A stretch of 64,000 nt of DNA from a virus: the IMG/VR virus record IMGVR_UViG_3300035685_000001, positions 1-64,000 of that record; one strand, 5' to 3'. The notes under the pieces are model-generated. The model was not told the DNA's origin, did not search any database, and was given only the letters and a program-made list of their open reading frames with translations. Of this stretch, positions 10,305-44,900 are shown in pieces. Position 1 is the stretch's first letter. Each line of letters begins with the position of its first letter. Position numbers and translations under genes: made by a program.

Positions 10305-10337
10305 AGTGCCCACTGCCAGATAGCCTACACCAAATTA

Positions 10338-10436: not shown

Positions 10437-10474
10437 AGCATCCGTTGATAGCAGCAAGGTAACTCACTTCAGTT

Positions 10475-10792: not shown

Positions 10793-10815
10793 TTAAGTCC
10801 TCACCTACACCGCTC

Positions 10816-10853
10816 TAAAAATGGCACCTCTAGAAAGCGTTTCTAGAGGTGCC
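10816..10853 (-). terminator. Rho-independent terminator (leftward)
   Basis: 12-bp stem GGCACCTCTAGA/TCTAGAGGTGCC with the T-run on the minus strand. Confidence 0.7.
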
Positions 10854-10885
10854 AAGTAGGCTAGTGATAGATAGAGCCTTAAGGT

Positions 10886-11266: not shown

Positions 11267-11413
11267 CCGCTGATACCTCCGTAGGGGCGATCGCTGTCGC
11301 TTTGCTCGGTTCTGTGACTTGCGAGCGGTAGTCTGGTAGTTTTTCCATCGATAATGTTGTTGAGTAGATTCCGATATGTTACAATCATAACAAGTAAATT
11401 GAGTAAATGCAAA

Positions 11414-12073
11414 ATGTACATAGAACACCTCAAAAGAATAAAATCAATTTCATACACATCAAGTACAGGATTAAGAGAGATTACGTCTGAAGTTTTAGCT
11501 TCTGAACTCGGATTATCTATTGAAGATTTTCAAGAATTCTTAAAAGCAAGTTTTGTAAAAGACGTTAAAGTCTTTAATTGCTTTACTATTTTGGCTTTGT
11601 CTCAAATCACGATTTATATAAAGTTTCCAAAACTTGAAGCAAGACTAAAAACTTTTTTTACGCTAGGTAATAATTTAGCTTTTTTATCTGGTGAAGATAC
11701 GGATGTTGTTTACAGAAGTTTAGAAAGGGCAGTCATAACAGAATTTGCATCAACATTAAGAGGTATTGATTCAGAAATTATAAGCGTCCATCCGTGGTTT
11801 GAAAAGAACTACTCTAATTTAATTTCAGGCTCAAAACTCATTCCAGTTAAAGCCATTAACCGCAAACGTCCAGACTTTCTGATTGAGCTTAATTCTTTAA
11901 TTATCCCCGTAGAATGCAAGAAAGTATTCTCAGTCAGATCATTAAGTCAATTGCAAGGCTATATGAAACTCTGGAAGGTTAATAAAGGAGTTGCTGTAGC
12001 AAATAAGTATACTTGCTCTTTGCCTAGCAATATCATTGCTTTGACTGTTTCTAAGGAGAGCGAAGTCTCATGA
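11414..12073 (+). CDS. PD-(D/E)xK nuclease-like protein
   Basis: C-terminal RPDFLIE...IPVECKK fits the D...ExK motif. AT-rich. I prefer the ATG at 11414 over the track start at 11354. Confidence 0.45.
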   Translation: MYIEHLKRIKSISYTSSTGLREITSEVLASELGLSIEDFQEFLKASFVKDVKVFNCFTILALSQITIYIKFPKLEARLKTFFTLGNNLAFLSGEDTDVVYRSLERAVITEFASTLRGIDSEIISVHPWFEKNYSNLISGSKLIPVKAINRKRPDFLIELNSLIIPVECKKVFSVRSLSQLQGYMKLWKVNKGVAVANKYTCSLPSNIIALTVSKESEVS

Positions 12074-20732: not shown

Positions 20733-21383
20733 TTACTCGACTCCTGTTGCTGTAAGGGTAATGGGTTCACCTTCTACGGGTTCAACGCCACTAGGTGTAA
20801 CTGTAGGTTCTGGCTCAAGGCTAGGTTGTCCACCATCTACTGCTAAACCTGTCTCTATCCCTGTTGCACTTAAGTCACCCCGTACTATTTTCATCCCTGT
20901 TACAGGGTCAGGATAGCCAACAATTACCATATTGTATGCAGACTGAGTGGTCTTACCAAATGCAAGACTGGCTTCAGTTTCAATTCCACCGTTAAGAATT
21001 GTAAACCAATCGTCTTTAGCTTCCGTAGGGAGAAAACCTTCATAAGGTTTAAGTAGAATCTTACGCTTAGGCACTCGCAACCCAGTAAGATCTCCGTACT
21101 CTAGCTTGCGCTTTGTTGGGTCTGCATTAATTGTGTACCTACTGGGATTAGTAGCTTGCCTAAAGAAATTTAAGCCTATCTCGCTAAGGCTTAACTCTAG
21201 GCGCACTTCTAGACCTGTAAAGCTTTTATCTGCTGGACTCTCACTTTGCTGAGTTTGATGCTCAGCCATCATGTCACTAATCGTTAGCGTGGCATCTTCT
21301 AGCTGATGTTCCCTCGCTATTATGAATTGCCCCGATTCACCAGGGGCAACAGTAACTTGAATGGGTCCGATGTGAGTACGCAC
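20733..21383 (-). CDS. Tail-tube-protein paralog with Pro/Glu/Thr-rich C-terminal extension
   Basis: Aligns along most of its length with 56091..56654 (RTHIGPI...REHQLEDAT...ADKSFTGLEV...YGDLTGLRVPKR...DDWFTIL...GYPDPVTGMK). Confidence 0.55.
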   Translation of the reverse strand: MRTHIGPIQVTVAPGESGQFIIAREHQLEDATLTISDMMAEHQTQQSESPADKSFTGLEVRLELSLSEIGLNFFRQATNPSRYTINADPTKRKLEYGDLTGLRVPKRKILLKPYEGFLPTEAKDDWFTILNGGIETEASLAFGKTTQSAYNMVIVGYPDPVTGMKIVRGDLSATGIETGLAVDGGQPSLEPEPTVTPSGVEPVEGEPITLTATGVE

Positions 21384-22409: not shown

Positions 22410-22509
22410 TGTCTTCTCTAAAAATACACCTCTAATGCTTATGGGGCAAGGTATTGAGCTAACGGGAGTAGCTAGATCTCAGTAATAAGAAGACCCTTGT
22501 AGTTCCGTC
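22410..22509 (+). repeat. Structured intergenic repeat, copy G
   Basis: ACACCTCTAATGCTTA...GAGCTAACGGGAG...CTAGATCTCAGTAATAAGAAGAC...GTAGTTCCGTC. The 3' half is nearly identical to copy K. Confidence 0.8.
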
Positions 22510-22604
22510 TATTTTCTTGCCTGGGTTCACCTCATGAGGTGCGATCGCGCTGGTCTTGATTACCCCAAGCTGCGAGCAACAGTGAAGTAACTACCTTACT
22601 GTAG

Positions 22605-22705
22605 GTTGCCCCACAAGAATTGCCCTCAAGTACTTACTGTATAAGGTGTTTAGCTAACGGGACTAGCGGAATATTTACTAGAGAATAGAGTAGGTTCTCC
22701 CGTCC
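22605..22705 (+). repeat. Structured intergenic repeat, copy H
   Basis: ...ACTTACTGTATAAGGTGTTTAGCTAACGGGAC...TTCTCCCGTCC, with stem ACGGGA/TCCCGT. Ends 11 nt before TTGACG 22717. Confidence 0.75.
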
Positions 22706-24080: not shown

Positions 24081-24106
24081 AGCCTCCGAAAGGGGGCTTT
24101 GTTTTT
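24081..24106 (+). terminator. Rho-independent terminator
   Basis: Stem AGCCTCC/GGGGGCT followed by a T-rich tail. Confidence 0.65.
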
Positions 24107-24133
24107 GACATTGTACTAACACTCAGCTAAACT
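24105..24133 (+). promoter_or_regulatory. Promoter
   Basis: TTGACA, 17-nt spacer, TAAACT. Merges with the T-run of the preceding terminator. Confidence 0.5.
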
Positions 24134-24154
24134 TGATTTATCTAAACGTCAATA

Positions 24155-25684
24155 ATGATTATGCAAGAAATACCACTGATAGGGCAAGATAACTGGGATG
24201 CAATCGACTACGCAAGTATTGAGCAAGGCTTGTATGGCATTACAACACCGGACGGGAAAGTGTTGAATGAGCAGCAGGTGTGTGCAGTGTTGTTGATGGA
24301 ATGCTGGTACTTTGAAATTACAGATTTCTTTGATACTCCAATAGGGTTTCATTTACTAAAAGAAGTCGTATCTTCTGCTGACTTAACTCAATATAAGGAT
24401 TGTCAGGATATTAGAAATAATTACGCCGATCAATGGTTCGAGTCTGACTTTACTCTTATTGGGTTCGCTGGCACAGGGAAAACTGCGAGCTTACAAGCAT
24501 TTTTGAATCGTGCTAAACAGCGAACGCACTTACTGATCACTGCCACTACTCCCACAAACAAGGCTTTGAAAGTTCTTAAAGCTTTTGGTAAGTCTTCTAA
24601 AATCACTGGCATTGAGTATCAGACTATCTACCAGTCCCTAGGCATGAAGTTAGAGACTGATGACGATGGTAAAGAGGTAGCCGTAGGAGATAAAGACGGT
24701 AAACAGAATTTACAAGACTTTGACCTTGCGATCCTTGATGAAGCATCAATGCTGAATGCTTCAATGCACTCTCGAATAGTCGGCTTAAGTAAGCGTCCTA
24801 AGTTCATCTTCATGGGTGACAGCAAACAACTTAAGCCAGTTAACGACAAGACTATCTCCCCAGTCTTCACAAACGTTACTGCCTCGTACACCCTCTCTAA
24901 GGTGATGAGATACCCTGAAGGCTCAGCCATTGCGAGCCTAGTAACCGCTGTAAGAGACAACGTAGGGTCTAGTGAGTGGATTGACCCTAGGGATTATGCA
25001 AACAGCGAAGACGTTATTGTAACCGACTCTGAAGACTTCTTAGACCGTCTTGTAGAAGACCTACAGAGCGATCGCTATTTGGATAATCCAGACTCAGTAA
25101 AAGCAATCTGTTACACGAATAAGGTTGTTGACTGGATTAACAACTTTTGTCATGAGAAGCTTTACGGTAAGAAAGCTGATGCTTTTGTACCTGGTGAACG
25201 GTTAGTAAGCACTAAGCCTGTTACCCGTTGGAAACCTGGAAGTGGAACAGAAGTAATTCTTAAGAACCGCTTTGAAGTGGATGTATTGAGCGTCGTAGAG
25301 GATGAGGTAGAAGGCTACAAAGCATGGCAAGTGCGAGCCAGTGTAGTTGATGAAGATAGACGAGTGAGACTGGTTATTGTTGACCCTTCAGAGCGTAAAA
25401 GATTAAATGCAGAGTTAGACGACTTACGACAGATGGCGCTTAAATTACCAAAAGGCAGTACAGAACGTAAAGTTGCTTGGAGAGAAATGTATAAGCTTAG
25501 AGACTCCTTCGACAGTGTTGTACACAGCTTCTGCATCACTACGCATGGCTCTCAGGGAAGTAGCTTTAACAATGTTTATGTGGCTGAACGCGATCTATTA
25601 CGTTGCAAAGAGCCTTTAGAACGCTCTCAGCTTAAGTATGTGGCTTACTCACGTGCAATGGAACGGCTCATTATCTCAGTATGA
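24155..25684 (+). CDS. SF1 Dda/RecD-like DNA helicase
   Basis: GFAGTGKT (I), AILDEASM (II), GDSKQLKPV (III), TTHGSQGSSF (V), YVAYSRAMERL (VI). Confidence 0.75.
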   Translation: MIMQEIPLIGQDNWDAIDYASIEQGLYGITTPDGKVLNEQQVCAVLLMECWYFEITDFFDTPIGFHLLKEVVSSADLTQYKDCQDIRNNYADQWFESDFTLIGFAGTGKTASLQAFLNRAKQRTHLLITATTPTNKALKVLKAFGKSSKITGIEYQTIYQSLGMKLETDDDGKEVAVGDKDGKQNLQDFDLAILDEASMLNASMHSRIVGLSKRPKFIFMGDSKQLKPVNDKTISPVFTNVTASYTLSKVMRYPEGSAIASLVTAVRDNVGSSEWIDPRDYANSEDVIVTDSEDFLDRLVEDLQSDRYLDNPDSVKAICYTNKVVDWINNFCHEKLYGKKADAFVPGERLVSTKPVTRWKPGSGTEVILKNRFEVDVLSVVEDEVEGYKAWQVRASVVDEDRRVRLVIVDPSERKRLNAELDDLRQMALKLPKGSTERKVAWREMYKLRDSFDSVVHSFCITTHGSQGSSFNNVYVAERDLLRCKEPLERSQLKYVAYSRAMERLIISV

Positions 25685-25703: not shown

Positions 25704-25731
25704 AGGCTAGCGTTAGGACTAGCCTTTTTTA
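25704..25731 (+). terminator. Rho-independent terminator
   Basis: Stem AGGCTAG/CTAGCCT followed by T6. Confidence 0.7.
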
Positions 25732-25742
25732 TTGACATTACA

Positions 25743-25771
25743 TTGACATTACGTTGACAATTAGCTAATAT
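25743..25771 (+). promoter_or_regulatory. Triple-TTGACA promoter
   Basis: TTGACA at 25732, 25743 and 25754. The box at 25743 has a 17-nt spacer to TAATAT (25766-25771). Confidence 0.55.
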
Positions 25772-25794
25772 TAAGCATTGAATTAAACGAAAGA

Positions 25795-26238
25795 ATGAAT
25801 CTTAAAGACCCGTTCACAAGAATAGGCATAACTATTGCAATAGGGCTACTGAGCTTTATCTATAATCAAGCATTCGAGGAACAATACAAGAGCCTGCAAA
25901 TCTACTGGATTATTGGGGGAATAATAAGGCTGCTGTTTTGGGTTGTTGCAATCTATCCCAACTACAGATGGAGGTCTTTAAATTTATTTAGGCGAGCTAT
26001 TGTAGTTGCAATTAGTATCGACTTCTGCTTAGTGTTCTTACCTGTTGACTTGCTGCTGTCTCCATTGGTTGACAGAATTCGTAATTCAATTAACTGGATA
26101 GTTTTAGCAGCTATTCTCTTAGATGATAGAGGTGATGGTGACGGAGGCAAAGGCAAGAAAGTAGAAGACACTGGAGAGGAAGTAGATAAGCATCGGCTCG
26201 CAATAAGTTACGCGATACTCACTCAGCAGAAGACTTAA
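25795..26238 (+). CDS. Membrane protein
   Basis: Four hydrophobic segments followed by an acidic/Gly tail. Framed by a promoter and a terminator. Confidence 0.5.
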   Translation: MNLKDPFTRIGITIAIGLLSFIYNQAFEEQYKSLQIYWIIGGIIRLLFWVVAIYPNYRWRSLNLFRRAIVVAISIDFCLVFLPVDLLLSPLVDRIRNSINWIVLAAILLDDRGDGDGGKGKKVEDTGEEVDKHRLAISYAILTQQKT

Positions 26239-26344: not shown

Positions 26345-26377
26345 AAAAAGCGGCTAAGATTTTTAGCCGCTTTTTTT
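26345..26377 (+). terminator. Rho-independent terminator
   Basis: Stem GCGGCTAA/TTAGCCGC followed by T7. Confidence 0.75.
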
Positions 26378-26378
26378 A

Positions 26379-26407
26379 TTGACATTAGATTGACGATTAG
26401 ATAATAT
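26379..26407 (+). promoter_or_regulatory. Dual-TTGAC promoter
   Basis: TTGACA, 17-nt spacer containing TTGACGATTAGA, then TAATAT. Confidence 0.55.
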
Positions 26408-26434
26408 AGACTCATTCACTCAAAGCTACAAGCC

Positions 26435-27024: not shown

Positions 27025-27054
27025 GCGACAATGTACAGGCATTGCCGCTTTTTT
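27025..27054 (+). terminator. Rho-independent terminator
   Basis: Stem GCGACAATG/CATTGCCGC (one mismatch) followed by T6. Confidence 0.65.
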
Positions 27055-27055
27055 A

Positions 27056-27084
27056 TTGACAGTGTATTGACATTTAAATAAAAT
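27056..27084 (+). promoter_or_regulatory. Dual-TTGAC promoter
   Basis: TTGACA, 17-nt spacer containing TTGACATTTAAA, then TAAAAT. Confidence 0.55.
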
Positions 27085-27108
27085 ATTACTATCACTCTAC
27101 AATTAACT

Positions 27109-27642
27109 ATGAAGACACAAGCCACCTACACATTTAAAGAAAAAGCATTATTGGTGTTTCACGAAACCAACTTAACGCTAATTTCTGCAATATTGTCTGA
27201 TTTGTCTTTACGCTATTTAATCAGTCTTTTAAATGCACCTCTAAAAAGTGGGAATGCCAGTGTAGGTACTACCAGAACAGTCAGTTGTGACAATTACAGG
27301 CTTGTTATGGATTTAATTGAGTCTGTTCTGATAATGCCAGTAATTGAGGAAGTAATCTTCAGGCTCGTCCCGTTAGTCTTTATGAGGTTAGTACTCAAGC
27401 AAAAAAAATCATTAATCCTAAATGTTATTAGCTCTGCTGTGTTTGCTTTCTGCCACAACTTTACTTGGAACATAAGCAATATTCTAGCTAGTCGTTATCA
27501 TTCGGGGTGGATACCTTTGCCGCAGTTTATTTGCGGTTTATTCTTATGGCATATTGCTAGGAAGTATGGTGTTATTTGGGCTATCGCTTCTCATGGTGCG
27601 ATTAATTTAGTGCTAACCCTAGTAAAAGCTTCCAACTGTTAA
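27109..27642 (+). CDS. CPBP (CAAX/Abi) family intramembrane metalloprotease
   Basis: Motif 1 EEVIFRLVP (EExxxR), motif 2 FAFCH (FxxxH), motif 3 HGAINL (HxxxN), set in hydrophobic helices. Confidence 0.7.
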   Translation: MKTQATYTFKEKALLVFHETNLTLISAILSDLSLRYLISLLNAPLKSGNASVGTTRTVSCDNYRLVMDLIESVLIMPVIEEVIFRLVPLVFMRLVLKQKKSLILNVISSAVFAFCHNFTWNISNILASRYHSGWIPLPQFICGLFLWHIARKYGVIWAIASHGAINLVLTLVKASNC

Positions 27643-27673
27643 TTGCTCTCACAGCAATTAAATAACTTAATCT

Positions 27674-27703
27674 CCTGTGTGCTGCATCGTACACAGGATT
27701 TTT
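27674..27703 (+). terminator. Rho-independent terminator
   Basis: Stem CCTGTGT/ACACAGG followed by T5. Separates the CPBP gene from the kinase gene. Confidence 0.65.
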
Positions 27704-27741
27704 AGTATAGGACGGTACAATGGGCATTTACGGTAATTTAG

Positions 27742-29145
27742 ATGGCAGCCGTAAGATTAACCCAACAGCGCTGGAGTTTAATAGCCCTACTTGGTTTAAG
27801 TATCACAAGTGGTGTAGTTGCACTTGCTGTTATTTCTCAGAACTATTCCACTGCTGCTAGTAGCAGTATGAGAGCAAAGAATGCCATACTCGCTCTGAGC
27901 GAGCTAGAAGGCTCTCTAAAGGATGCTGAAACGGGTCAAAGGGGATTCCTCCTAACTGGAGACGATGATTACCTAGACCCTTACATAGAAGGAGCAGGGA
28001 TAGCACAAGCTAATGTCGCGAAGCTTGAAAGTCTACTTAAGACCTCAGACACTGTAAGTGCAAAAAGCCTTGAAGATATTAAACACTTCACGGCTCTTAA
28101 GCTTGCTGAACTGGAAGAGACGATTGCCTTAAGACGCTTCAGAAGTCTAGAGGCTGCTTTGCCCGTAGTCAAGTCTGGTGAAGGCAAAGGCTACATGGAT
28201 ATCATTCGAGCTAGGTCTAACCGCATCCGTTACGCTCAAGAGTCCATCCTTGGCACCAACCTTGCAATCCTTGACCAACTCAACACAGTACGCAATAGCA
28301 TAATCCTAATCATTAGCATGGCTTCTGCTGGTATCTTCTGGCTACTCTTCCAGAGTTTTAAAGAAGAGACGGCACTACGCAAGCAAATAGTAGCCAATCA
28401 AGAAGCTGAAATAGAAAAGAATGAAGCTGATGTTAAAGCTCTTAAGGAAGCTGCAGACCTTAAAGAACGTGAGCTAAGCTTCCGTATTCATGATTGGAAG
28501 AATCCAGTAACAGCGATTCAAAGTAGTATCGACCTAATAAACTACTATTACAAAAAACAACAACTTACAAACAGTCATTTTGAAAAACATTACGAGCGCA
28601 TCATTGTAAATGTTGCAACATTGCTGGATGGCTTTAACGATGCTTTGGTAGTAGCGCGTGCAGAAGCAGGAAGACTAGACGTGATTAAGCAATCTACAGA
28701 CCTTGGAATAGTCATCCGAAATAGCATTAATGCCGTAGAGTCAAAAGCTATTAATCACACTATTAGACTGTACCAAAGTGAACTTGAGTACCAGGTAATG
28801 TGTGATGCCAGTTTGGTGCAAAGGGCAATAGTGAATCTACTAGAGAATGCTATTAAACACACTCCAAGTGGTGAGATAGGGGTGTGCCTTCACAAGGTGG
28901 CTACAAAGACGCTCATCCAGGTAGCAGACCAAGGTGAGGGCATACCACCTGAAGACTTACAACGCCTGTTCAGTGCCTTCGAGAGAGGCAATACAACAGC
29001 TAAGGGAACTGGACTAGGTTTAGCTGTTGTGAAGTCGTGTGCAGAGGCTCACGAAGGGTCTGTCAGGGTGGAGTCAAGGGAGGGCTTAAGACTCGCTCAT
29101 CCTGATGGACTGACTTATAGGACTATGTTTACTCTTTCGATTTGA
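27742..29145 (+). CDS. CHASE3-domain sensor histidine kinase
   Basis: TM1, then a periplasmic ETGQRGFLLTGDDDYLDPY (CHASE3 signature), TM2, coiled coil, H-box IHDWKNPVTAI, N-box LENAIKHTP, G1 DQGEGIP, F LFSAFERG, G2 GTGLGLAVV. Confidence 0.8.
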   Translation: MAAVRLTQQRWSLIALLGLSITSGVVALAVISQNYSTAASSSMRAKNAILALSELEGSLKDAETGQRGFLLTGDDDYLDPYIEGAGIAQANVAKLESLLKTSDTVSAKSLEDIKHFTALKLAELEETIALRRFRSLEAALPVVKSGEGKGYMDIIRARSNRIRYAQESILGTNLAILDQLNTVRNSIILIISMASAGIFWLLFQSFKEETALRKQIVANQEAEIEKNEADVKALKEAADLKERELSFRIHDWKNPVTAIQSSIDLINYYYKKQQLTNSHFEKHYERIIVNVATLLDGFNDALVVARAEAGRLDVIKQSTDLGIVIRNSINAVESKAINHTIRLYQSELEYQVMCDASLVQRAIVNLLENAIKHTPSGEIGVCLHKVATKTLIQVADQGEGIPPEDLQRLFSAFERGNTTAKGTGLGLAVVKSCAEAHEGSVRVESREGLRLAHPDGLTYRTMFTLSI

Positions 29146-29240
29146 GGCGGAACTTGTAGAGGTGTTATTAAGTATTAGATCTACTAGTTCTGTTTGTTGG
29201 GATGCTTGCAGGGTAAGATTTTAAGGTTGATTTTGGGGAT
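29145..29240 (-). repeat. Structured intergenic repeat, copy N (only minus-strand copy)
   Basis: The reverse complement reads CCCCAAAATCAACCTTAAAATCTTACCCTGCAAGCATCCCAACAAACAGAACTAG...ATCTAATACTTAATAACACCTCTACAAGTTCCGCCTC. The last 37 nt differ from copy J at one position. Confidence 0.75.
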
Positions 29241-30629: not shown

Positions 30630-30730
30630 AGTTCATACTCTAAACAGACCACTATTGCTTACTACATATACGTTACAGCTAACGGCAGTAGCAGAGTTTA
30701 ATAACTAATAACACCTGTTGTACTTCCGCC
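30630..30730 (+). repeat. Structured intergenic repeat, copy I
   Basis: GTTCATACTCTAAACAGACC...GCTTACTACAT...CAGCTAACGGCAGTAGC...TAATAACACCTGTTGTACTTCCGCC. Confidence 0.7.
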
Positions 30731-30776: not shown

Positions 30777-30813
30777 GTAGTAATCCTTTATACATTTAAT
30801 TCTTGTGATAACA

Positions 30814-31245
30814 ATGGCAACGACAAGTACCGAGAGAATGCGAGCATTAGTTGCTCGTCGCAAAGCTGGCATTAAGATTCCTAAGTGCAACTGTGGGTCA
30901 AAACTGACCTCACCTGAGAGTGTCAGGACTAAACGCTGTTCTACGTGTCGTAGGGAGAATCCAACCTCTGAAGAGCGCCAGAGGGCAATCGCCAATGCTT
31001 ATAAGTCAATGAATAGGCGAGCAAAGTTGTATGAGCTAGAGACTCCGCTAGAGGGCTTCAAGTGGGAATGGCAAGAGGTAGAGGTTGCATTGCCTAGCCA
31101 TACTGATGGAGTGTTGGTTGAAACCGTAAGAGGTGCTAAGACTATAGGCATTTACTACCCTCTACAAGGATGGGTAGATAGTATTGATGGACTAACTGTC
31201 AAGGCTAAAAGATGGGCTGAGATACCAAAGCGGGAGGCGAGCTAA
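30814..31245 (+). CDS. Zinc-ribbon plus DUF551-like domain protein
   Basis: CNCG...CSTC ribbon. The C-terminus W.WQEV...VLVE...GIYYPLQGW...VKAKRWAEIP is paralogous to the next two ORFs. Confidence 0.5.
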   Translation: MATTSTERMRALVARRKAGIKIPKCNCGSKLTSPESVRTKRCSTCRRENPTSEERQRAIANAYKSMNRRAKLYELETPLEGFKWEWQEVEVALPSHTDGVLVETVRGAKTIGIYYPLQGWVDSIDGLTVKAKRWAEIPKREAS

Positions 31246-32055: not shown

Positions 32056-32081
32056 CCCAGGCAGCAATGCTTGGGATTTTT
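32056..32081 (+). terminator. Rho-independent terminator
   Basis: Stem CCCAGG/CTTGGG followed by ATTTTT. Confidence 0.55.
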
Positions 32082-32082
32082 A

Positions 32083-32111
32083 TTGACAACGCGCTGACGA
32101 TTAGGTAAAAT
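32083..32111 (+). promoter_or_regulatory. Dual-box promoter
   Basis: TTGACA, 17-nt spacer containing CTGACGATTAGG, then TAAAAT. Confidence 0.55.
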
Positions 32112-32134
32112 AATGGAAGTATATCACGAAAACT

Positions 32135-32689: not shown

Positions 32690-35600
32690 ATGACTAACTG
32701 TAACACGCCCGGCTCCGATAAGTCAAATGTCAATCCCACAATGCTCTCATTGGACGCTAAGAGAGCAGAATTACAGACAAGGCTGGCTACTTTACAGCAA
32801 TTTCCTCAAGAGCCTGAGCAAGACTCACTAGAGGCAGCAAGAGCAACGTCACCTCTATTACAGTATTTAGACAGCACAAAAGACTTAGAAGCATTAACGC
32901 TACCGGATGCTAAGATGCCACCTTTGCCACAATCTCAACAACGTGGCAACCTTGGAACAAGAGACGAATGGAACGAAAAACTAGATTTAGCGATTGCTCA
33001 GATTAAGGCAACAGGATTCAAAGAAGGTGATACGGTAGCGATTCGTTGTCTACCACCAAAGGGCTTAGCAGAAAAATATTTCACTAATTTCTCCTTTAGA
33101 AGAGGGATAAATTACGACTTAGATATTTTGCCTAACGATGAATACAGGTTAGTTCCTTACAAGAAAGTAAAAGTCGGAGTTGATAGCAAAGGCGAACCAG
33201 TCACAGAGTGGGTTAGAGATGAAGCTAATGCTACTCTGAAATGGTGGAGAGTGTTGCTTAAGGACAATGCTCATGGTTATGGGATGTACTTACTCCCAAA
33301 CAAGGGAGGGCATAAAGACGGTGACATCACCCACACCATGAATGCCTTCTATGAGACGGATGACACTTCTTTTAAGCAACAGCAAGCTAAGCTAAACGAC
33401 TTCATCTCCAAGACAGGTCTTAAGCCGTCTGTGGTTGTCAGAACCCGTAAGAGTTTACATGTCTACTTCCGTTTCAAAGAGTCAGAGTGGCAGATACCCA
33501 ATTGGAAGGATGAGGTACAGAAGCCGACTACTCTTGCTTTGCAGTCAGATGTGAGTATTACTAACCTTGCTAGACCGATGCGTTTAGCTGGTTTCTTTCA
33601 CGTCAAGTATGACAAGTACGCCGATAGCTTTGATTATCTGAAGTGTGACTTATTGGTGTGTGAGCCTCAGAATCAATACACCAGACGTGAATACCGTCAA
33701 GCGCTAGCAGTTTATTCTGGTATGGAGTATTCAGCTAAGCGGCTAGATGCTTACAACAAAGTAAACAGGGTTTTAAACAGTCAGTGGGGAAGTCAGGATG
33801 AAGACTACAAGCTTCTACCATCTGTGCAACAGGTTCTTAACTGTCCTGCTGAGTTAGTTGCAGAACTTTATCGACGCACAGAAGTCTATTCGGACTTGCT
33901 CCAGAAAGAATACAACGCGCAAGATGTAGACCCTGTTGACGCTTGGGTTAAACCACTGGATGAGCTTAAAAAGCATCAGGTTGTCAACTTAGATGGTGTT
34001 GACACTGGCAGAGAAAGCGACATTCTACGATGGGCGCAATACCTTTTTGGATACCGTGAGAATGGCAGACCTGGTTGGATTACTGGACAAGATCCAACAG
34101 TGCCAGAGAGTGAGAGTGATAGTCATTCTCTAGACTCTCTCCACATCAATATGGAGACAGGTGCTTTTATCTCACACAAAGGTACTTGCACAAAGGAAAT
34201 CTTCAGAGCATTAAAAGAACTGGCATTCAGAAGCAATCCTGAAGAGGAGAGGCTTTTCAAAGAGAAGTGGGCAACTATTTTACGGAATGCCAAGAAAGAG
34301 CAGGGGCAAATATCGGCTGAGGAGTACAAAGCTCGGAAGCTCAAACCAGCTAAGACAGAAGATGACGAGAACGAGCTAGCAAAAGCAAGGCAGGCTAAGT
34401 TTGAGGCAGAAGAACGCGAGTTTGCAGAGTATCAGGCTCGGATGGCAATAGACCGCAGCAAGGTCAAAACCTACTACAAATGCAATGAGCGGTACTTGAG
34501 TGATGAGACTGTCTCTTACATTCCATCTCTTGAGCAGTGCAAACAACAAGGACAAATTCTAGCTCTGAAAGCTCCTAAAGGTACGGGCAAAAGCTACCGA
34601 GTTAGAGACAAAATCAAGGAAGTTGCCAAGGATTGCTGGTTAACCGTAAGTGTTACTCTCAGACGAAATTTAGGTTTAGCTCAATCTAATGATTGGGGTA
34701 TCAAGTGGGTGGATGAAGATGGCATGGAGTCATTCTTCCAGGGGCAATCAAACACGATGTCTTGCTGTTGGGATAGCCTACACAAGTTCCATAAAGCCGA
34801 CTATCGCAATAAACAGATTCTACTCATTATTGATGAAGTTGAGAGCGGTTTAGACCATCTTTGCACTGCCAAGACAATCGGGAGACGTGGTAATCGCGCT
34901 GATATTCACGCTGAACTCAGAAGAATTGTAGACCACATCAGAGACAATGGTGGACTGATTGTAATTGCTGACGCTGATTTGAGTGAGCCGTCTGTAGATT
35001 TCTTCAGAACGATTAGCAGAGGCTTGCCAATTACAGTAATTGACAATTCTTACGTTGACAAGAAAAAAACTATCCCTGTTTTTCACACCAAAGACGGTGA
35101 AGTTAAAAATGCAATCAAGGCAGGGATAGAGATGAATATGCCTTTCTTGGTTGCAACAGACAGCCTCAAGACAGCAAAAACAATGCATCGTTTTGCAGAA
35201 AAGTATCTTAAGTCAATTAATCATGAAGACTTGGCAGATAAGCTATGGCTTATTGACAGCGAGACAAGTCACACGGAAGCTAACAAAGCTCGCCTCAAGG
35301 ACATTAACAAGGCAATTAAGGAACAGAACCCCATTGCTATTTTTTACACTCCTACAATCAACGTGGGAGTATCCATCAACGTTGATTACTTTGATGAGGG
35401 TTATGGAGTATTCAAGGGGGCTATTATTTCAGATCAAGCCCGTCAGATGGTTGCTCGCAACCGTAAGACAATTCCTTGGACTATCTTTGCAGATAACCTC
35501 GTAGACCCTGCTAAAAAAGGCAAGGACACCCTCATTACTCCAAAACCAATCAAAGACAGGCTTATCAATAAAGTAGAGGCTCAGTCATTCATTACAGCTA

Positions 35601-36688
35601 AGGTTGCTCAGAAGCTACTTGAAGAAGGTAAAGACCCTGACCACAGCGTTAGTGTTGCAAAGGCAACACTTGAGTTAATGGAGAAACTTGAGAATGATAA
35701 GCCAAGCTTTGATACTGCTGAGTTTCATTTGCTCGCAAACATCGAAGCCAAGAAAAACTTTCAGATGAAGCATTATCACAAATGCTTTGTAGATGGTATG
35801 AAGGCTGAAGGATGGGACGTTGTGAGCAAAAAAGGCAATAAAACAGCGTTGTGTGATGAAATCAAAGAACTTCAGCAGCAAATGATGAAGGAAGAGGCAA
35901 AGGCGATCGCTGAAGCTGACGCAAGCCAGATATTAGACTATGAACAAGCTAGACACATCCTATCTACTGTTGATGACAGAGAACAACGCAATGCTGCTCA
36001 CAAGTTCTCTGTTGCCCACTGGACAAAGTTGGAGTTAGACAAGGTGGACGCTGCACTGGTAGAACTGGTCAAGTTTAATCCTCGGTGGCTATCAGCAGTA
36101 AAACTCCAAGTATACCTACAGAACCCTGAAATCATTGAGACTATTGACGCTTACCGAACTAACAAAATGGCAAAGCAATATGAAAAGCATGGCTTTATAA
36201 CCCCTCAAGATGTACCAGGGAAGGTTCAGGAAGTTAGAGAGATTCTAAACTTTGGACTGCTTAAGGTAATTGACTTGAATGATGACGAGCAGAAGTTCGA
36301 GAAGAAAGACTTTGATCCACTGTTTAAGAAAATGAAACAATGGAAAACTGCGAAGTTAATTCAATGGGGTCTTGATTGCGGCATTCCAATCCACAGTCGG
36401 GAGATGTTTAACAATCCTATCAGACTTGTAGTTAAACCAATGTTAGCCAAGTTGGGTTATAGCGTCACAAAAGCGACCAAGAAACAGAAGCAGTCTTACA
36501 AGATCCCAGCAGAGGAAATAAACTGCATCCACAGAGCTAATGTGATCGAGGCTATTCTCAAAGATTGGACTGAAAGCCAAGTACAGAAAGAAATTCAGGA
36601 ACCGATAGCAGACGGTATTAACCTAAAAAGAACAGAGTTTACTGTAGGTAAAGAGCAAGTAGTAGAAGCTCAGTTGGAAGCTTGCTAG
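32690..36688 (+). CDS. Primase-polymerase (AEP-like) / P-loop helicase fusion, replicative
   Basis: N-terminal FYETDD, SLHVYFRF and RLAGFFH resemble AEP prim-pol motifs. Central Walker A APKGTGKS and Walker B LLIIDEVE. Confidence 0.6.
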   Translation: MTNCNTPGSDKSNVNPTMLSLDAKRAELQTRLATLQQFPQEPEQDSLEAARATSPLLQYLDSTKDLEALTLPDAKMPPLPQSQQRGNLGTRDEWNEKLDLAIAQIKATGFKEGDTVAIRCLPPKGLAEKYFTNFSFRRGINYDLDILPNDEYRLVPYKKVKVGVDSKGEPVTEWVRDEANATLKWWRVLLKDNAHGYGMYLLPNKGGHKDGDITHTMNAFYETDDTSFKQQQAKLNDFISKTGLKPSVVVRTRKSLHVYFRFKESEWQIPNWKDEVQKPTTLALQSDVSITNLARPMRLAGFFHVKYDKYADSFDYLKCDLLVCEPQNQYTRREYRQALAVYSGMEYSAKRLDAYNKVNRVLNSQWGSQDEDYKLLPSVQQVLNCPAELVAELYRRTEVYSDLLQKEYNAQDVDPVDAWVKPLDELKKHQVVNLDGVDTGRESDILRWAQYLFGYRENGRPGWITGQDPTVPESESDSHSLDSLHINMETGAFISHKGTCTKEIFRALKELAFRSNPEEERLFKEKWATILRNAKKEQGQISAEEYKARKLKPAKTEDDENELAKARQAKFEAEEREFAEYQARMAIDRSKVKTYYKCNERYLSDETVSYIPSLEQCKQQGQILALKAPKGTGKSYRVRDKIKEVAKDCWLTVSVTLRRNLGLAQSNDWGIKWVDEDGMESFFQGQSNTMSCCWDSLHKFHKADYRNKQILLIIDEVESGLDHLCTAKTIGRRGNRADIHAELRRIVDHIRDNGGLIVIADADLSEPSVDFFRTISRGLPITVIDNSYVDKKKTIPVFHTKDGEVKNAIKAGIEMNMPFLVATDSLKTAKTMHRFAEKYLKSINHEDLADKLWLIDSETSHTEANKARLKDINKAIKEQNPIAIFYTPTINVGVSINVDYFDEGYGVFKGAIISDQARQMVARNRKTIPWTIFADNLVDPAKKGKDTLITPKPIKDRLINKVEAQSFITAKVAQKLLEEGKDPDHSVSVAKATLELMEKLENDKPSFDTAEFHLLANIEAKKNFQMKHYHKCFVDGMKAEGWDVVSKKGNKTALCDEIKELQQQMMKEEAKAIAEADASQILDYEQARHILSTVDDREQRNAAHKFSVAHWTKLELDKVDAALVELVKFNPRWLSAVKLQVYLQNPEIIETIDAYRTNKMAKQYEKHGFITPQDVPGKVQEVREILNFGLLKVIDLNDDEQKFEKKDFDPLFKKMKQWKTAKLIQWGLDCGIPIHSREMFNNPIRLVVKPMLAKLGYSVTKATKKQKQSYKIPAEEINCIHRANVIEAILKDWTESQVQKEIQEPIADGINLKRTEFTVGKEQVVEAQLEAC

Positions 36689-38881: not shown

Positions 38882-38938
38882 GGAATATAGCAAATAAGGT
38901 CTAAGATGGGGAGATGCTTGTGTCTCCCCTCTTGTTGT

Positions 38939-41900
38939 ATGTCTATAGACATTGCGTCAGTTTCTATTCCTACGGAGATTAATTTATCGGGATTTAATTC
39001 AGGACTTGCAGCGCTTGAGCGTACCAAAATAAAAAGCCTAGAGGTAGACGTAAAGCTCAACACACAGAGCTTAGAGCGTGACAGAAAGCAGTTAGAGGCA
39101 ACGTTAGCAAAGCCACTAACTCTGAACTTAGAGGTAGATGACACAGCACTACTGACACTTAGAAGACGATTACAGAAGCAAGCACCTTACAAAGTTAAAG
39201 TCACAACAGAAGTAGACACTAGAGGTGTTATTAACGCACGTCAGCAGATTAACAAGTCAATTGGCAATATCCCAGAAGTAAAAATCTGTGTTGACGACTC
39301 AGAGCTTTATGAACTGAACAAGCACATTGAGCTTAAGCGTACTCACGTCAAAGACATCAATAAGTGGATGGCAGCTAATCCTATTACTGTCCATGCGGAC
39401 ACCAGTAGGGTTGATGCTTTTGAAAAGCGCACCATAAAGGGCAAGAAAGTTAGAGTTGAAGTTGAGTATGATGACCCTGGCTATAAGTCAACTGCATTAG
39501 CCACTCATTCAGTTTCATCAACAAAGTCCACGTTGAATTTCACAAAGCCTCTAGAAGCTCAGACAAAGGCTCTTGATTCTGCAATCGACTCAGCAGCCGA
39601 CAAGATAGCCGATGCGCTTGAGAAAGGCTTTAAGAGCCAAAAGAAAGGACTCTTAGGAGAGATAGGTTCAGGCTTGCTACTTGGAGCAACCTTTAAGGGA
39701 GGCTCAGCCTTATTTGATAAAGCTACAGGTAAAGCCAAACAAACCGTTACTCAACAAAAAGAACAACGTCAAGCCTTTACTCAACTTAATTATAAAAGTC
39801 AAGTTGCTGTAACTAAAAAGCAGGTAGTTGTTCAAAATAAAGAAACTGATAAGTTACGCCAAGAGATGCTGCAAATGAATAACAGGGATGTTATTCAGCC
39901 TCTAGCAAAGAAAGCAGGTGTCAAAGCATCTACTAAAGTTCAAGCCGTAGAAGGCTTATTAAGCGGACAGTCTCCACAACAACTTAAAACTCAATTACCT
40001 TACATTGATAATATTCGTCAAGAGGCTGTTAAAACCTCTGAACAATTATCAAAGCTTACAGCAGTTCAGCTTAAAACTCAGTTATCAGATACTACTAAAC
40101 GACTTAGCACCAGTCTCAAAGGGATTAAAGGTACTGCCAATATTTCTGCACTGTCTGACCTTGGCAATCAAATAGAAAAAGAATATCAAGCCGTTATTGC
40201 CACATTATCAGAAGCTACTGAAGAGGATGCAAAAAACATTTTACAGTCGGCAAAGCTTCAGATAGCTAAGATTCGCAAAGCAACCTCAACAGAAGCTCAG
40301 AAAGTTTCTTTAGAAAGCATTCAAAATCAAGGCAATCAACAAGGGCAACAGCAGTTTTTAAGACGCGCCAAGCAACCTAAGTTTAATGCACTCCAACAGC
40401 GTCGCATTAAAGAAATGCAATACAACGCTCGCATTGTAGAAGAGCGAGCAGAGCAAATCTATCAGACTCTTCCAGACCTTCCTAAAGACACTAAACGTAT
40501 TGCACTTGTGTCAGGTGGTTTTGCAAGTAAGCATGGCAAGTCAAGCCATTCTGTTGCTGAAAGAATGAAGCCATTCTTAGGAGAAGGTACTCATGTACAG
40601 CCTGTAGAAAATCCTGATACGGATTGGGGTGACTATGATGCAACAGTTGAGAAAGACCCTATCTCATGGGCAAAAAATGCTGTCAAAGTAGTTGCAAAGC
40701 ATAATTTAGGCAAAGGTTACAAAGAAGACTCTATACAAGCTGCTGCCTACGCTAAAGCTTACGCCAAGAAAGCTAAAGAACAAGGCTTAAACATTCCAAA
40801 CATTGAAGGTTATGGCTACTCAGCAGGAGGTTTTGTAATGCAAGAAGCGGCTGAGTTAAGCCGTGAAACTAGAACACCATTTAAAGGTGTAGGAATAGGT
40901 ACACCTCACTATGGAATCTCCAACACTGCCTCTCAAGAAGATTACATTAGCGTATTAGGTGGACAAGACCCGCTCTCTAAACTTCAACCTGTCAAGTCAC
41001 CTAACCTTAGAACTTATGCTAAAGCAGGTCGAAAACACCTTTTAGAAGAGTACACAAACAATCCGGATGTGCAGCGTGACATTTTCTCCCACATGGGGAG
41101 AGAAGCCCCTTTTGCACTCGGTCAGGACTTTGAAGAGAACATGATGTCGGCAATGAATGCCGCACAAGAAAGTCTTAGCATTAACCCTCGAATGCGTCCT
41201 ACTCTTGCTGCAAGTGGAGCAATTGACCCTGTATTAGACGAACTCACAAAGCATCGTGAAACAATAGCCGATCAAATAGACAACATCCCCTTGGAAATTT
41301 TAGAAGACGTTAAAGCAGCGGATGAAGTATTACAAGGTCTTCAGAATCAACTAATCAAAGGATTTGGACTAAAGGGTAAATCTGTTGCCCCTTTAGCGCA
41401 AGCTGGAAAGAAAGTTATAAAAACACCTGCTCAGCAAATTGTAGGGAATGGAGATAAAGAGCAGCAAATACTTAAAAATTATCATGCCATTCTTAAAGAA
41501 ATGGCAGACGTAGCAGGGGTTACGGTAAATCAAACTCAAGTCCCAAAATTAACTGTAGACCCTGCTAAGCTTAAACGTTTAGATGCAAATGCTTATTACG
41601 AGTCTGGTTCAAAAAATGAAATAACAATTCAACCACGATTGGCAGAATTGCTTGCTCTTCCTACAGAAGAATTAAAAAACTATAGTAAAGAACTAACTTC
41701 TTTGACTCATGAGTTATTTCATAGTATTGATTTAGCTTTTGGCGAAAAGACCATAGGAGGGTTGGCAAGAGGAACAGATCAGATTGAAACTCCCTTATCT
41801 CCATCTGTCACTGTTAACGGTGACAGAATGGCAAGGATAGCAATGGCTGACACTAAGCGAAGTCAGCCACGAGCAAACAATGATTATTTAAAGACCATAG

Positions 41901-44900
41901 GGCAGTTAGAGCAAAGAGCCTATAGCTTCCAGGCATCAACAGGAAAGATTCTAGAACGTGTTTCTGAAAACCCCCAACAAGTTGATCAAATACGAACAGC
42001 AACAGAACGCGCTGAACAATTAGGTAAAGACATTGGCAAGGTTATAAAGCCACCAAATCTGCAACCAATAATTAACAATGGCTTACGGGCTTATAAGGGG
42101 CTTACAGCAAAACAAGCAAAACAATTAGAACAGAATTATAAAAATTTCTTTAAAGAGGTAGCAACCTTATCAGACTTTGACTTAGGTGGTCGCAATCTTC
42201 CTGGATTAAAGGTAGATGAAAAGCTATTAGAACAACAGTCAGCAGATGCTCTTTATGATATTGCAAATAATCAAATAATTATTTCTAAAGAACTTCAGCA
42301 GGCACTAGCTGAAACCCCCGAAGGATTGCAACAATACGCTGAACAGATGGCGGCATTGGTGCATGAGGCTCGCCATGCTATGCAGTTTGACCTTGGCACA
42401 TTGTCAATGGAAGACTTGCAGCTAGGTCTAAAACCAGGTACTAATCTAAAAGCCTTTAATGAGACTTCCTCTGATGCTCAAAAAGCAGCACTTGAATCTG
42501 TAGACTTTGCTGCTCAACAAAATCCAGCAATGAGCGATCGTGCCAAAGCTGTACTTGGAACAGTTGAAGCTGATGCTTCAGACTTTGAACAGAACACACA
42601 AGGTATCTTAGAAAACCTTGCTGCAACAGAAGTCTTTGAGAATGCTTTCGGTGACTTCAAGCAGGAAAAAGCAGCATTCAGAAAAGCCTTAGACGATATC
42701 GAAGCCTACCTAAGCGAAGGTTTAAACCATCTAACAAAAGTTATTACCGACTTTGGTAAGAACTTAGCAGCAAAAGCTCAAAGTATTATCAGTGGATTTT
42801 TAACAGGCAACAGAACGTCAAAAGAATCCTCAAGAGCTTATGGCGGCTTCCAATACGTCAGACGTGGAAAAGGCACTCCTACTCAGTTATCTAACGATAT
42901 ACCCGATCCTTGGGAACAAGAATCTGAAGCGGAATACAGGCGAGCAACACCAGTGCAAGGCACTACACCTCAACTCCCAAGGCTTGACCCTAGAGGCTTA
43001 GGACAGCGCGTAAGAGTTCGCATAAGAAAACCTATTCAACAGACTATTAAGGGTACTCAGCAAGTCACAGAGAAGGCAGTAGAGAGCTTCAATAATCGTC
43101 TAGCAGATTACGTAGAAGGCAATTATAAGGAAGTCCTTAAAGAAGTATCAAGTCTAGCTGGTGCTAGCTTTGATGAAAACAGCTTACCAGAACTAACAGT
43201 CAATGAATCTGCATTAGCTAAAGCTGGCAAAGAAGCTCTTTACGATGCAGAGAAGAATCAAATTATTATTTCTCGACAAATGCGAGAAATGCTTAAGGCT
43301 AACCCCAGAGCATTAGCACAATATTCCAAAAAACTCAAGCCATTAATTGAAGCAGCAAGAGAGTCTATTGAAGGCACTACTGAAGCGGAAGCTCAAGAAT
43401 TTAGCAAACGCTCAGGAGAAGTATTAGCACGTGTAAGCACCAGAGCTAAAGGCAAGCGTTCTAACTACGCCACTCCCATTAAAGGTATCGCTGAGAACCT
43501 AGAGGCTTCAATAGATGCGTTGGCACTTGGCGCGCAAGAGTCAGAAAAACTTAAGAAACGCGCAAGGCTTTTTCTTAATAGTCTCAAGCAAGCTGCTAAA
43601 ACTCCCGACAACATGAATCCTGTGGTACCCGCTACAGAAAAAGCTAAGCCTTACCGCTTAGGAGCTGGAAAGTCTATGCAAAGCATGAGGCGAGCCTACA
43701 GGGAGATACGGAACCCCACACCTTTCTTGCCAGAAGGCAACACCGCTCAAAGGGTATTTACACGTGTTGTTCCTAGACCTGTCAGAAAAGCAGTTCAACA
43801 ACAAGCTGAAAGAGCAAAACAGGTATCAGGTGTTGACCTAAGCAATCCTACAAGCGCATTTCAAGCACTAGACAAAGCTGTTCAATCTGTCAATAAGCGC
43901 TTTAAAGTTCCTATTGAACTCTATGCAAAACTTAACATCAAGGGAATGGCTGATGTTGTTCAAGATTTGCAAAAGATAGTAGGCAAGGAACTAGATAAGC
44001 TAGAAAAGAAGGCTCAGACATTACCTTACTTTGGAGACTTGGCAGGCAAAGCTGTAGGAAGCTTAAAGTCTTTTGCAATGGCGGGTTCTGGAGCTGGAAT
44101 AGTTGCCTTAAGATTCTTGAGTGTACTTGGTCGTTTTACCGGACTTGCCACACTTGCCGCTCAGATTCAGTTAGTAGCAGTTCAATTTGATGGACTTAAG
44201 AAAAGCTTCATTCAAGTCTCAAACGAAGCTAACCGAGGTGCTGAAACGTTTGATAGAGTAATGCAATCTGCCAGTGAGCTAGGAGTAGATAAAGCTACAG
44301 CCGCTCAAGGTGCAACTCAAATCTTTGGTAATGTTAACCCTAAGATGGGTAGCCGAATGGCTGAGCAGACAAACAGGGCTGCTCAAGAAGCGTCGTTAAT
44401 CTACTCAAGTACTCCTCAGCAATCAGAGCAGATATTCTCAGCATTTGCCAACTTGACTGATGAATCTACCTTAAGTATGGGTAGCTTTCAACAAATGATG
44501 AAAGCCATCCCAGGTAGTCTTGATACGGCTGCTCGCTCTATGGGTATGACCAATGCTGAGTTTCAAAACTTCATTCAGAGCAACAGCATACTTGTAGATG
44601 ATTTCTTGCCTAGATTCATTCAACAAATGAATGTTGACAATCAACCTAAGATCGCTGGTGCAATGGATACTCTCTCCACAGCAACAAATCGTTATAACAA
44701 CGCACTAGTAGATGTGCAGTTAGAAATAGGTAAGACAATCACACCAATTGAGAAGTTAAGAGTACAGTCAGCGGCTTGGATGGCTGAAAATCCATTGAAG
44801 TACATGGCTGCTGTCTTTGCCAAGTGGTCTACTTCAATGGCTGTATTGTCACTCGTTAAGTTTATGGTGGCAAGTAAGAATGTTTTGGCTACTGTAATCC

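Follow-up and report, generated by a model that had tools for sequence, protein, structure and literature searches.

A phage-lineage-specific orphan CHASE3 sensor histidine kinase encoded within the replication module of large, probably cyanobacterial phages

Cellular histidine kinases with a CHASE3 sensor domain, such as RsfS from Mycobacterium smegmatis, CfcA from P. putida, KipF from Sphingomonas melonis and RsbK from B. cereus, respond to high ionic strength or to respiration-inhibiting conditions and feed general stress pathways (PMC10950880). The cellular examples adjoin receiver-domain partners and serve the stress response of the cell itself. In contrast, the kinase described here is partnerless and lies in the replication module of a phage. 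It is encoded in the first 64,000 nucleotides of the IMG/VR virus record IMGVR_UViG_3300035685_000001, the stretch that was analysed as a whole and is referred to below as the window. Like the phage kinase, RsfS consists of a transmembrane helix (TM), the CHASE3 domain, a second TM, a dimerisation and phosphotransfer (DHp) domain and a catalytic ATP-binding (CA, HATPase_c) domain, and it carries no extra PAS, GAF or receiver modules (PMC10950880). The phage kinase, however, shares at most 36% identity with the proteins found outside its own clade. An earlier note on this DNA, made from its letters alone, had singled out the gene as an unusual phage-borne sensor kinase, and several of its claims are taken up below.

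Histidine kinases have already been annotated on viral sequences. The phoR "auxiliary" genes found on soil viral contigs (Nat Commun 2024) have been proposed to act on host PhoB, and they resemble the phage kinase in their conserved ATP-binding residues and in a ratio of nonsynonymous to synonymous substitution rates (dN/dS) below 1 (PMC10987575). They differ in that the phage kinase misses the PhoR cut-off (98 vs 334 bits), possesses a CHASE3 sensor, forms its own lineage and occupies a fixed position across a diverged phage clade. Kinases of giant viruses and phaeoviruses (EsV-1, FirrV-1, Klosneuvirinae and Marseilleviridae) have the DHp-CA fold in common with it, but they belong to eukaryotic viruses, are mostly larger (up to ~1,190 amino acids, aa) and are in some cases annotated as "sensory box ... 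response regulator". Phage-carried sensors that respond to the surroundings are also represented by VqmA of Vibrio phage VP882 and by arbitrium AimR, cytoplasmic transcription factors that control the lysis-lysogeny choice directly. Unlike these, the phage kinase is predicted to reside in the membrane with an extracytoplasmic domain and has no DNA-binding output, so that it would need a host partner.

The kinase and its phage lineage

The gene is predicted to encode a complete class I (HisKA-type) sensor histidine kinase in which all residues needed for autophosphorylation are intact, with the domain order and coordinates listed in Table 1. Pfam recognised CHASE3 with 102.6 bits against a cut-off of 28, matching positions 3-132 of the 138 in the profile, and HATPase_c, the GHKL ATP-binding domain, with 85 bits against 26.4 (kinase aa 355-448). 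Two hydropathy TM segments bracket the CHASE3 domain, which is predicted to be extracytoplasmic. Residues 230-448 align to the cytoplasmic domain of HK853 from Thermotoga maritima (PDB 2C2A, 3DGE), the HisKA archetype, with H250 falling on the phospho-histidine of HK853. HK853 differs from the phage kinase in its sensor region and in having a cognate regulator, RR468, and the identity between the two is 25%. In an AlphaFold model computed with the clade alignment as input (mean predicted local distance difference test score, pLDDT, of 82), the sensor is all-helical and a single continuous helix (aa 147-250) runs through TM2 and the linker to H250; further helices, which with this one form the DHp hairpin region, span 253-271 and 277-308. 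The modelled DHp-CA part superposes on HK853 with a target-normalised TM-score (TMt) of 0.78-0.80 (Foldseek). A profile of the clade matched the solved CHASE3 structure 3VA9 with its N-terminal part (E 2e-8), and it also matched many solved HisKA kinase structures. The earlier note had read the gene as a complete membrane sensor kinase with CHASE3, HisKA and HATPase domains, and the Pfam matches, the HK853 alignment and the model agree with that description.

Within the clade, H250, D251, W252, K253 and P255 are unchanged in 11 of 11 members, giving an H-box of the form H-D-W-K-N/S-P, and the NLLENAxKHT, DQGxGIP, FxAFERG and GTGLGLAVV boxes are conserved or invariant among the same sequences. 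The CHASE3 signature LKDAETGQ is invariant in all 11. In HisKA kinases, the H-D-x-x-N arrangement (the E/D-x-x-T/N motif) is associated with phosphatase activity, and this motif is present intact in the window kinase. Comparison with curated equivalog models gave 98.2 bits for TIGR02966 (the PhoR equivalog, cut-off 334.2) and scores far below the cut-off for all other named kinases, the best being a scytonemin kinase model (120.9 vs 865). Sequence and fold place the protein in the HisKA kinase and CHASE3 families, and on these scores it stands outside any named equivalog such as PhoR.

A protein search identified 10 full-length homologues at 54-81% identity, all of ~465 aa, after which the next match fell to 31%; identity among clade members is 54-100%. 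Among 1.84 billion protein cluster representatives searched with phmmer, the clade was represented by one sequence (576 bits), and matches outside it reached at most 189 bits and 36% identity, save for a 2017-aa multidomain protein that scored 241 bits over four stretches at 29% identity. The best full-length matches in 185,579 bacterial and archaeal species genomes were 25-29% identical, and in neither of these two collections was a protein outside the clade found above 36% identity. A scan of JGI metagenomes, dominated by the generic CHASE3 motif LKDAETGQ, yielded only distant cellular kinases (≤32% identity) among the matches listed. Against 50,697 deposited phage records, tblastn of the CHASE3 part gave a single marginal match (E = 8e-3). 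Several PHROGs families match the transmitter half, and 25 viral models in BFVD match at E ≤ 0.001, mostly from giant viruses and phaeoviruses with a few from "uncultured Caudovirales"; the BFVD kinases share 13-23% identity with the phage kinase, and none is close. Most histidine-kinase matches in the deposited phage collection come from evidently host-contaminated records, such as the "phage" record MW462191.1, which carries genes for aminopeptidase N and glutamine synthetase adenylyltransferase. The contigs carrying the kinase lineage are large phage contigs of up to ~122 kb, and by these searches the kinase appears to belong to a small, isolated lineage found only on such contigs.

Full-text literature searches found neither a phage CHASE3 kinase nor a conserved sensor kinase of phages described in any paper; the combination of "CHASE3" and "phage" led to unrelated papers only, and a 2026 preprint on an Anabaena cyanophage mentions histidine kinases as host genes only. 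The earlier note's statement that no phage CHASE3 kinase had been described therefore held in the collections searched, whereas viral and phage histidine kinases in general were already annotated. The new element is an orphan CHASE3 kinase that is specific to one phage lineage, fixed in its synteny and strongly constrained. Separately, an unrelated, phage-like viral contig (L004, IMGVR_UViG_3300035696_002971; 61 kb, GC 59%) encodes a 613-aa CHASE3-PAS-HisKA-HATPase kinase (9881-11722) that is flanked by tail-like genes and an HNH endonuclease and likewise lacks a receiver domain within 10 kb. Phages may have acquired CHASE3 kinases on more than one occasion.

Genomic contexts were recovered for seven clade members from independent assemblies, comprising NCBI, IMG/VR, ENA, two Logan runs and two JGI samples. 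In 7/7 contexts, the kinase gene is placed 3' of an SF1 helicase gene and 5' of the gene for a RepA-like protein, which follows in every context extending that far. The gene order is helicase-kinase-RepA-Dam and then, where the locus extends, thymidylate synthase, dCTP or dCMP deaminase and a giant protein; the thymidylate synthase of this conserved block is ThyX, with ThyA in relative L087. Kinase divergence tracks that of the core replication genes. Relative to the window, identities in L003 (the closest relative), L085, L087 and L088 are 83, 65, 61 and 59% for the kinase, 86, 58, 57 and 57% for the SNF2 helicase, 84, 72, 76 and 77% for the SF1 helicase, and 71, 44, 42 and 44% for RepA, respectively. 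A scan of IMG/VR with the SF1 helicase alignment found only a contig that was already known.

Selection on the kinase was estimated from the comparison of the window with L003. Overall dN/dS was 0.096 for the kinase and 0.078 for the SF1 helicase, and by kinase segment it was lowest in CHASE3 (0.062), followed by CA (0.082), DHp (0.137) and the linker (0.186); all of these values are approximate, as dS was ~1.2 and near saturation. GC content at the kinase (~0.39-0.41) shows no break against the remainder of the window (0.38-0.45). The kinase is a conserved, vertically inherited, syntenic gene of the phage clade, passed on with the replication module, and it is under strong purifying selection that is strongest on the CHASE3 domain. 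The earlier note had named a chimeric join with host DNA at 27.6-29.2 kb as something that would undo its reading. Such a chimera is ruled out by the shared synteny, the co-divergence, the clade-wide identity gap, the selection pattern, the continuity of GC content and the recurrence of the HIP1 motif all along the window, with the same helicase-kinase-RepA order in seven contigs. The same evidence argues against a recent host-derived passenger gene.

Absence of a receiver-domain partner

HisKA kinases are dimers that autophosphorylate the H-box histidine and transfer the phosphate to, or remove it from, receiver aspartates. Receiver domains were sought in six-frame open reading frames (ORFs), with filters off, using a hidden Markov model (HMM) built from 186 receiver domains of 80 cellular CHASE3-kinase loci. 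A first-round model (111 domains, CheY seed) served as the positive control and recovered 202 receiver domains in the same 80 loci. The scan of phage loci covered the 64-kb window, 17 kb flanking it in the same phage, 93,197 of the 119,213 nt of the closest relative, and the 10-kb kinase flanks in five other clade contigs. No match better than E = 1 was obtained in any of them, the best match in the window having E = 3.4, and the Pfam annotations of the phage contigs contained no Response_reg in any phage locus.

Cellular CHASE3-kinase loci present a different arrangement, with a receiver domain within 3 kb in 37/51 and within 10 kb in 43/51. The two nearest homologues outside the clade, P0012 and P0013, directly adjoin Response_reg genes. 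Across the regions scanned, the phage kinase is an orphan rather than one half of a paired two-component system. This result upholds the earlier note's claim that the 64 kb hold no receiver-domain gene. It also bears on the possibility, raised in the same note, that a cognate regulator lies just outside the window: none was present in the 17 kb of flanks or in the scanned part of the relative. Prediction of a host partner from DHp similarity was attempted and rejected, the best cellular matches sharing only 33-36% identity.

Control region, neighbouring genes and probable host

Table 1 Coordinates of the kinase gene, its domains and the surrounding features in the window
Feature	Position	Strand	Basis
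SF1 helicase (AAA_30/UvrD_C_2), upstream synteny anchor	24155-25684	+	Pfam; all seven contexts
Double-TTGACA sigma-70-like promoter (TTGACA-17-TAAAAT, 11 of 12), predicted for the protease	27049-27085	+	Promoter scan
CPBP/Rce1-like glutamic intramembrane protease, 177 aa	27109-27642	+	Pfam PF02517, 39.3 bits vs cut-off 22.4
Hairpin followed by T-run, upstream of the kinase	27673-27698; T-run 27699-27703	+	Terminator scan; -16.2 kcal/mol, z = -5.2
-10-like hexamer TACAAT, candidate kinase promoter element	27716-27721	+	20 nt before ATG
Orphan sensor histidine kinase gene, 467 aa	27742-29145	+	ORF; TM1-CHASE3-TM2-coiled-coil linker-DHp-CA
TM helix 1 (aa 10-33)	27769-27840	+	Kyte-Doolittle, 19-residue window, peak 2.49; helical in model
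CHASE3 sensor domain (aa 40-170)	27859-28251	+	Pfam PF05227, E 2.1e-29
TM helix 2 (aa 183-206)	28288-28359	+	Hydropathy peak 1.99; continuous with linker helix into DHp
DHp (HisKA-type) dimerisation and phosphotransfer domain	28456-28656	+	H-box RIHDWKNP
Predicted phospho-accepting H250 codon	28489-28491	+	Alignment with HK853
CA (HATPase_c) domain, N/G1/F/G2 boxes	28804-29085	+	Pfam PF02518, E 6.4e-24
Reversed 32-nt end fragment of dispersed intergenic repeat	29146-29177	-	Directly after kinase stop codon; families D6, D9
RepA-like replication protein (CyRepA1 family), 1332 aa, downstream anchor	32690-36688	+	NCBIfam NF042913; PHROG "replication"

The region directly 5' of the kinase contains a hairpin that recurs at the same place in L003, L085 and L087, and 6/8 of its pairs have compensatory changes across the four phages. 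The earlier note had placed the kinase behind a terminator of its own. The hairpin with its T-run is real, but the hairpin is conserved 5' of the kinase even in phages without the protease, and the T-run is clean only in the window copy; the structure terminates the upstream unit, belongs to the 5' control region of the kinase, or does both. When the window, L003, L085 and L087 are aligned, all four have a TACAAT or TATAAT hexamer at one common position, ~17-23 nt 3' of the hairpin. We infer that transcription of the kinase starts from a putative promoter of its own, in which only a -10-type element is recognisable, and that its regulation differs from that of its neighbours.

Those neighbours are preceded by a recurrent promoter-like motif, TTTTTTATTGACAnnnnATTGACAnTTAnnTAAnATA, which combines a double -35 with a near-consensus -10 and forms a six-copy repeat family (1126-1170, 24098-24134, 25725-25772, 26372-26408, 27049-27085 and 32076-32112). 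It stands before several plus-strand genes of the replication block, the protease among them. The promoter and repeat scan of the window did not find it upstream of the kinase, as the earlier note had remarked.

NtcA-activated cyanobacterial promoters have a GTA-N8-TAC consensus with a geometry similar to that of a GTG-N8-TAC site (27679-27692) lying inside the conserved hairpin, 23 nt upstream of the -10-like TACAAT. In L003, GTA-N8-CAC is found at an equal distance, and L085 and L087 are without it. The resemblance to an NtcA-type operator may be fortuitous; an RNA hairpin explains the region more simply, because the site is missing from L085 and L087 and the stem co-varies.

The repeat that the earlier note saw abutting the kinase stop codon is indeed present, in the form of the reversed end fragment listed in Table 1, and a 20-mer of this fragment matches 53365-53384 on the minus strand with 1 mismatch (0 expected). 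The parent family is dispersed between genes, with ~100 nt per copy, at 9268-9349, 10355-10394, 10494-10575, 10693-10797, 22410-22514, 22615-22702, 30648-30728, 53264-53382, 54054-54158, 54311-54392 and 54558-54640. Several copies end a few to ~80 nt before plus-strand start codons (30805, 53387 and 54644), which points to a promoter or 5' leader element common to these genes, or else to a small mobile element. Rfam yielded no family in 20-34 kb.

Immediately upstream of the kinase, as the earlier note had described, lies a gene for a CPBP/CAAX-family protease, supported by the Pfam match and by its motifs: EExxxR, FxxxH and HxxxN are kept as IEEVIFR, FAFCH and HGAIN in the translation. Members of the CPBP family are linked to bacteriocin immunity and abortive infection. 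No tblastn homologue of this protease was found in any related locus, it is absent from 6/6 other kinase contexts, and a search of a 5.8-billion-protein collection retrieved only the protein itself; its place in the closest relative is taken by an unrelated 222-aa ORF. PADLOC matched nothing in the protease and six neighbours, and the kinase gave only a weak, generic ATPase-domain match (PDC-M43B, 23.8 bits). The protease looks like a strain-specific, independently acquired accessory gene or insertion unrelated to the kinase, because it has its own promoter, is followed by the hairpin and lacks a counterpart in any relative. Between the helicase and the kinase, the window also encodes a small membrane protein of 147 aa (25795-26238, plus strand) with 2-3 predicted TM helices and a Gly/Asp-rich tail. 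It is kept in L003 and L085 and absent from the other relatives.

The phage context assumed by the earlier note is well founded. Among the products of the window are a major head protein, a head maturation protease and the 4219-aa M23/lysozyme-like protein, and its flanks and the relative add cement protein, lysozyme, portal, tail and tail-fibre proteins, DnaE, ribonucleotide reductase and methyltransferases. The assembled genome is circular or circularly permuted, with a length of ~121,647 bp (~121.6 kb), because the window maps across the ends of the NCBI contig JAXMMZ011226602.1 (121,788 bp) with a 141-bp overlap, as read from the coordinates. It has no cultured relative among the 50,697 deposited phage records: megablast of 20 kb returned no match, and tblastn matches of the major head protein and RepA reached only ~25% identity, to enterobacterial phages.

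The host is probably a cyanobacterium, given the HIP1 enrichment and the CyRepA1 replication protein. HIP1 marks cyanobacterial genomes, and this octamer palindrome, GCGATCGC, occurs 17 times in the window, for example at 11287, 23751, 30568 and 62289, compared with 0.15 expected from shuffles. It recurs throughout the window and is also found in most related contigs. The 1332-aa replication protein matches NCBIfam NF042913 (CyRepA1, a cyanobacterial plasmid Rep family) with 215.6 bits against a cut-off of 200. The best NCBIfam match of the transmitter half of the kinase is likewise a cyanobacterial kinase model. No integrase was seen in the annotated regions of the window, flanks and relative, and the relative encodes a ParB-HTH protein (L099 3690-4623) and a fusion of ParB_N with a methyltransferase (L105 11233-12456). 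A phage-plasmid lifestyle is possible.

Several other features of these genomes were recorded. The 4219-aa protein is encoded by a single ORF at 38906-51565 (plus strand) with M23 peptidase and lysozyme-like domains; versions in the relatives measure 3192-3855 aa and include a tape-measure (TMP_3) domain, and the protein is an unusually large tape-measure or ejection protein. A homing-endonuclease-like ORF in the window (7485-8231, minus strand) has a weak Pfam match to LAGLIDADG_3. A T5orf172/MUG113 ORF lies ~5.5 kb upstream of window position 1 (L091 4503-4778), and a T5orf172 gene also interrupts the equivalent region in L191. A stretch of 271 nt is 70% identical between 20837-21107 and 56099-56369 (also 940-967). 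It lies in ORFs 20733-21383 (minus strand, replication block) and 56091-56654 (minus strand, structural block), which look like paralogous genes in two modules.

Proposed role and biological significance

With moderate confidence, we favour the reading that this conserved phage kinase acts as a sensor and adds phosphate to, or removes it from, a response regulator of the host. The protein would be inserted as a dimer into the host membrane during infection or a carrier state, where its CHASE3 domain would read an extracytoplasmic or membrane-linked cue. The signal would travel along the unbroken helix formed by TM2 and the linker until it reached the DHp domain, and this domain would control how far one or more response regulators of the host are phosphorylated. 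Host gene expression or physiology, or the phage's own development, would thereby be coupled to conditions relevant for phage replication. By analogy with the cellular CHASE3 kinases, ionic strength and respiration-related conditions are candidate cues only. A more ambitious version of this reading, which we put forward tentatively, is that a large-cyanophage lineage has kept its own extracytoplasmic sensor kinase since before its divergence and has plugged it into the host response-regulator network without a phage output protein. Such a virus-owned "sense organ" might read ionic strength, the redox or electron-transport state, or a cell-surface signal, and the phage could reprogramme the host or time its own development by that cue.

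Several points weigh against the host-regulator reading. Phosphotransfer to a host regulator is a step that we infer. Pfam HisKA gave no match at E 0.01 in the window kinase alone; weak matches were obtained in the clade members P0009 and P0011. The receiver search reached ~40 kb of the 121.6-kb genome to which the window belongs only through the relative whose kinase is 83% identical, and of the remaining 26 kb of that relative, ~24 kb is presumed equivalent to the window while positions 1-1993 have no window counterpart. A very divergent receiver, or a phosphoacceptor that is not a receiver, would escape the HMM. The near saturation of dS limits the precision of the selection estimates. Two IMG/VR contigs (...000018 and ...000021), relatives by their structural and DnaE genes, were not recovered by the kinase or helicase patterns; because of this, the kinase may be core to a sub-clade only.

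Among the alternatives, the one closest to the favoured reading holds that the protein serves mostly as a phosphatase or phosphate sink. It would keep a specific host response regulator free of phosphate and so silence a stress, envelope or abortive-infection response of the host, with CHASE3 as a mere membrane anchor or modulator. The H-box fits the phosphatase motif of HisKA kinases described above. Known cellular CHASE3 kinases feed general stress responses (PMC10950880), and use of a kinase by phages to disarm host defences is exemplified by the T7 Ser/Thr kinase (PMC13645617). On the other hand, the ATP-binding boxes (N, G1, F and G2) are invariant and CA is constrained, so that kinase activity is presumably kept, and the position of CHASE3 as the most constrained segment argues that real sensing is kept. 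We consider this alternative unlikely, and it is a variant of the main explanation rather than an exclusive alternative. The target might instead be a phage protein without a canonical receiver, or the protein might act as an anti-sigma-type kinase, in either case regulating the phage's own programme and leaving host signalling untouched. Weak matches to HATPase_c_2, an anti-sigma kinase-like family, in the window kinase and several clade members point in this direction, as do small conserved phage ORFs downstream, for example a 146-aa zinc-ribbon-like ORF (30805-31245) conserved at 42-65%. Yet the HATPase_c_2 score of the window kinase lies below the Pfam cut-off (24.2 vs 27.4), and the DHp H-box and fold match canonical HisKA kinases that pair with receivers, and we regard this explanation as improbable. 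Comparably improbable is an ordinary phage two-component pair with its regulator gene in another part of the 121.6-kb genome, beyond the regions covered. Regulator genes such as phoB or narL have been described in phage genomes (PMC10987575), and the stretches of the phage and its relative that were not read directly leave room for one; against this stand the negative receiver scans in all loci covered and the usual presence of the regulator within 3 kb of cellular CHASE3 kinases (37/51).

Two further explanations concern the origin and surroundings of the gene. The earlier note had linked the kinase to the adjacent CPBP/Abi-like protease, and their adjacency on the same strand, together with the reputation of the CPBP family in immunity and abortive infection, would suit a two-gene exclusion, immunity or lysis-decision module. 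This link was not borne out, and we regard such a module as very unlikely: the protease is absent from the six related contexts and has no homologue in the protein collection, it has a putative promoter of its own, the hairpin separates it from the kinase, and PADLOC recognised no defence family beyond the weak generic match. The least probable explanation, to which we give almost no weight, is that the kinase is host DNA joined by chimeric assembly or captured very recently, an "auxiliary" gene of the phoR kind with no phage-specific role. The host contamination of most histidine-kinase matches in the deposited phage collection makes the suspicion a natural one. Nevertheless, the same synteny occurs in independent assemblies of different samples, the contig closes on itself, kinase divergence follows the core genes, no cellular homologue exceeds 36% identity, and the cut-offs for PhoR and other named equivalogs are missed by a wide margin.

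Phages are known to read cytoplasmic signals in the form of quorum-sensing autoinducers and arbitrium peptides, and kinases on viral contigs have mostly been treated as sporadic host-derived passengers. The kinase described here behaves like a core gene, with a fixed position, co-divergence, strong constraint, no close cellular relative and no partner regulator. This core-gene behaviour, combined with the orphan status, raises the testable question of whether a virus can sense the outside through a two-component kinase and rewire host signalling. With this clade, a compact family of intact CHASE3 kinases also becomes available for work on a sensor domain that still has no known ligand. Should the host be a filamentous or mat-forming cyanobacterium, to which the HIP1 enrichment and the CyRepA1 replication protein point, infection could be tied through the cue to light, redox or nutrient state, which would be relevant to bloom and mat ecology. 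If the "sense organ" proposal is true, the kinase would be the first two-component-type counterpart of the phage quorum-sensing receptors.

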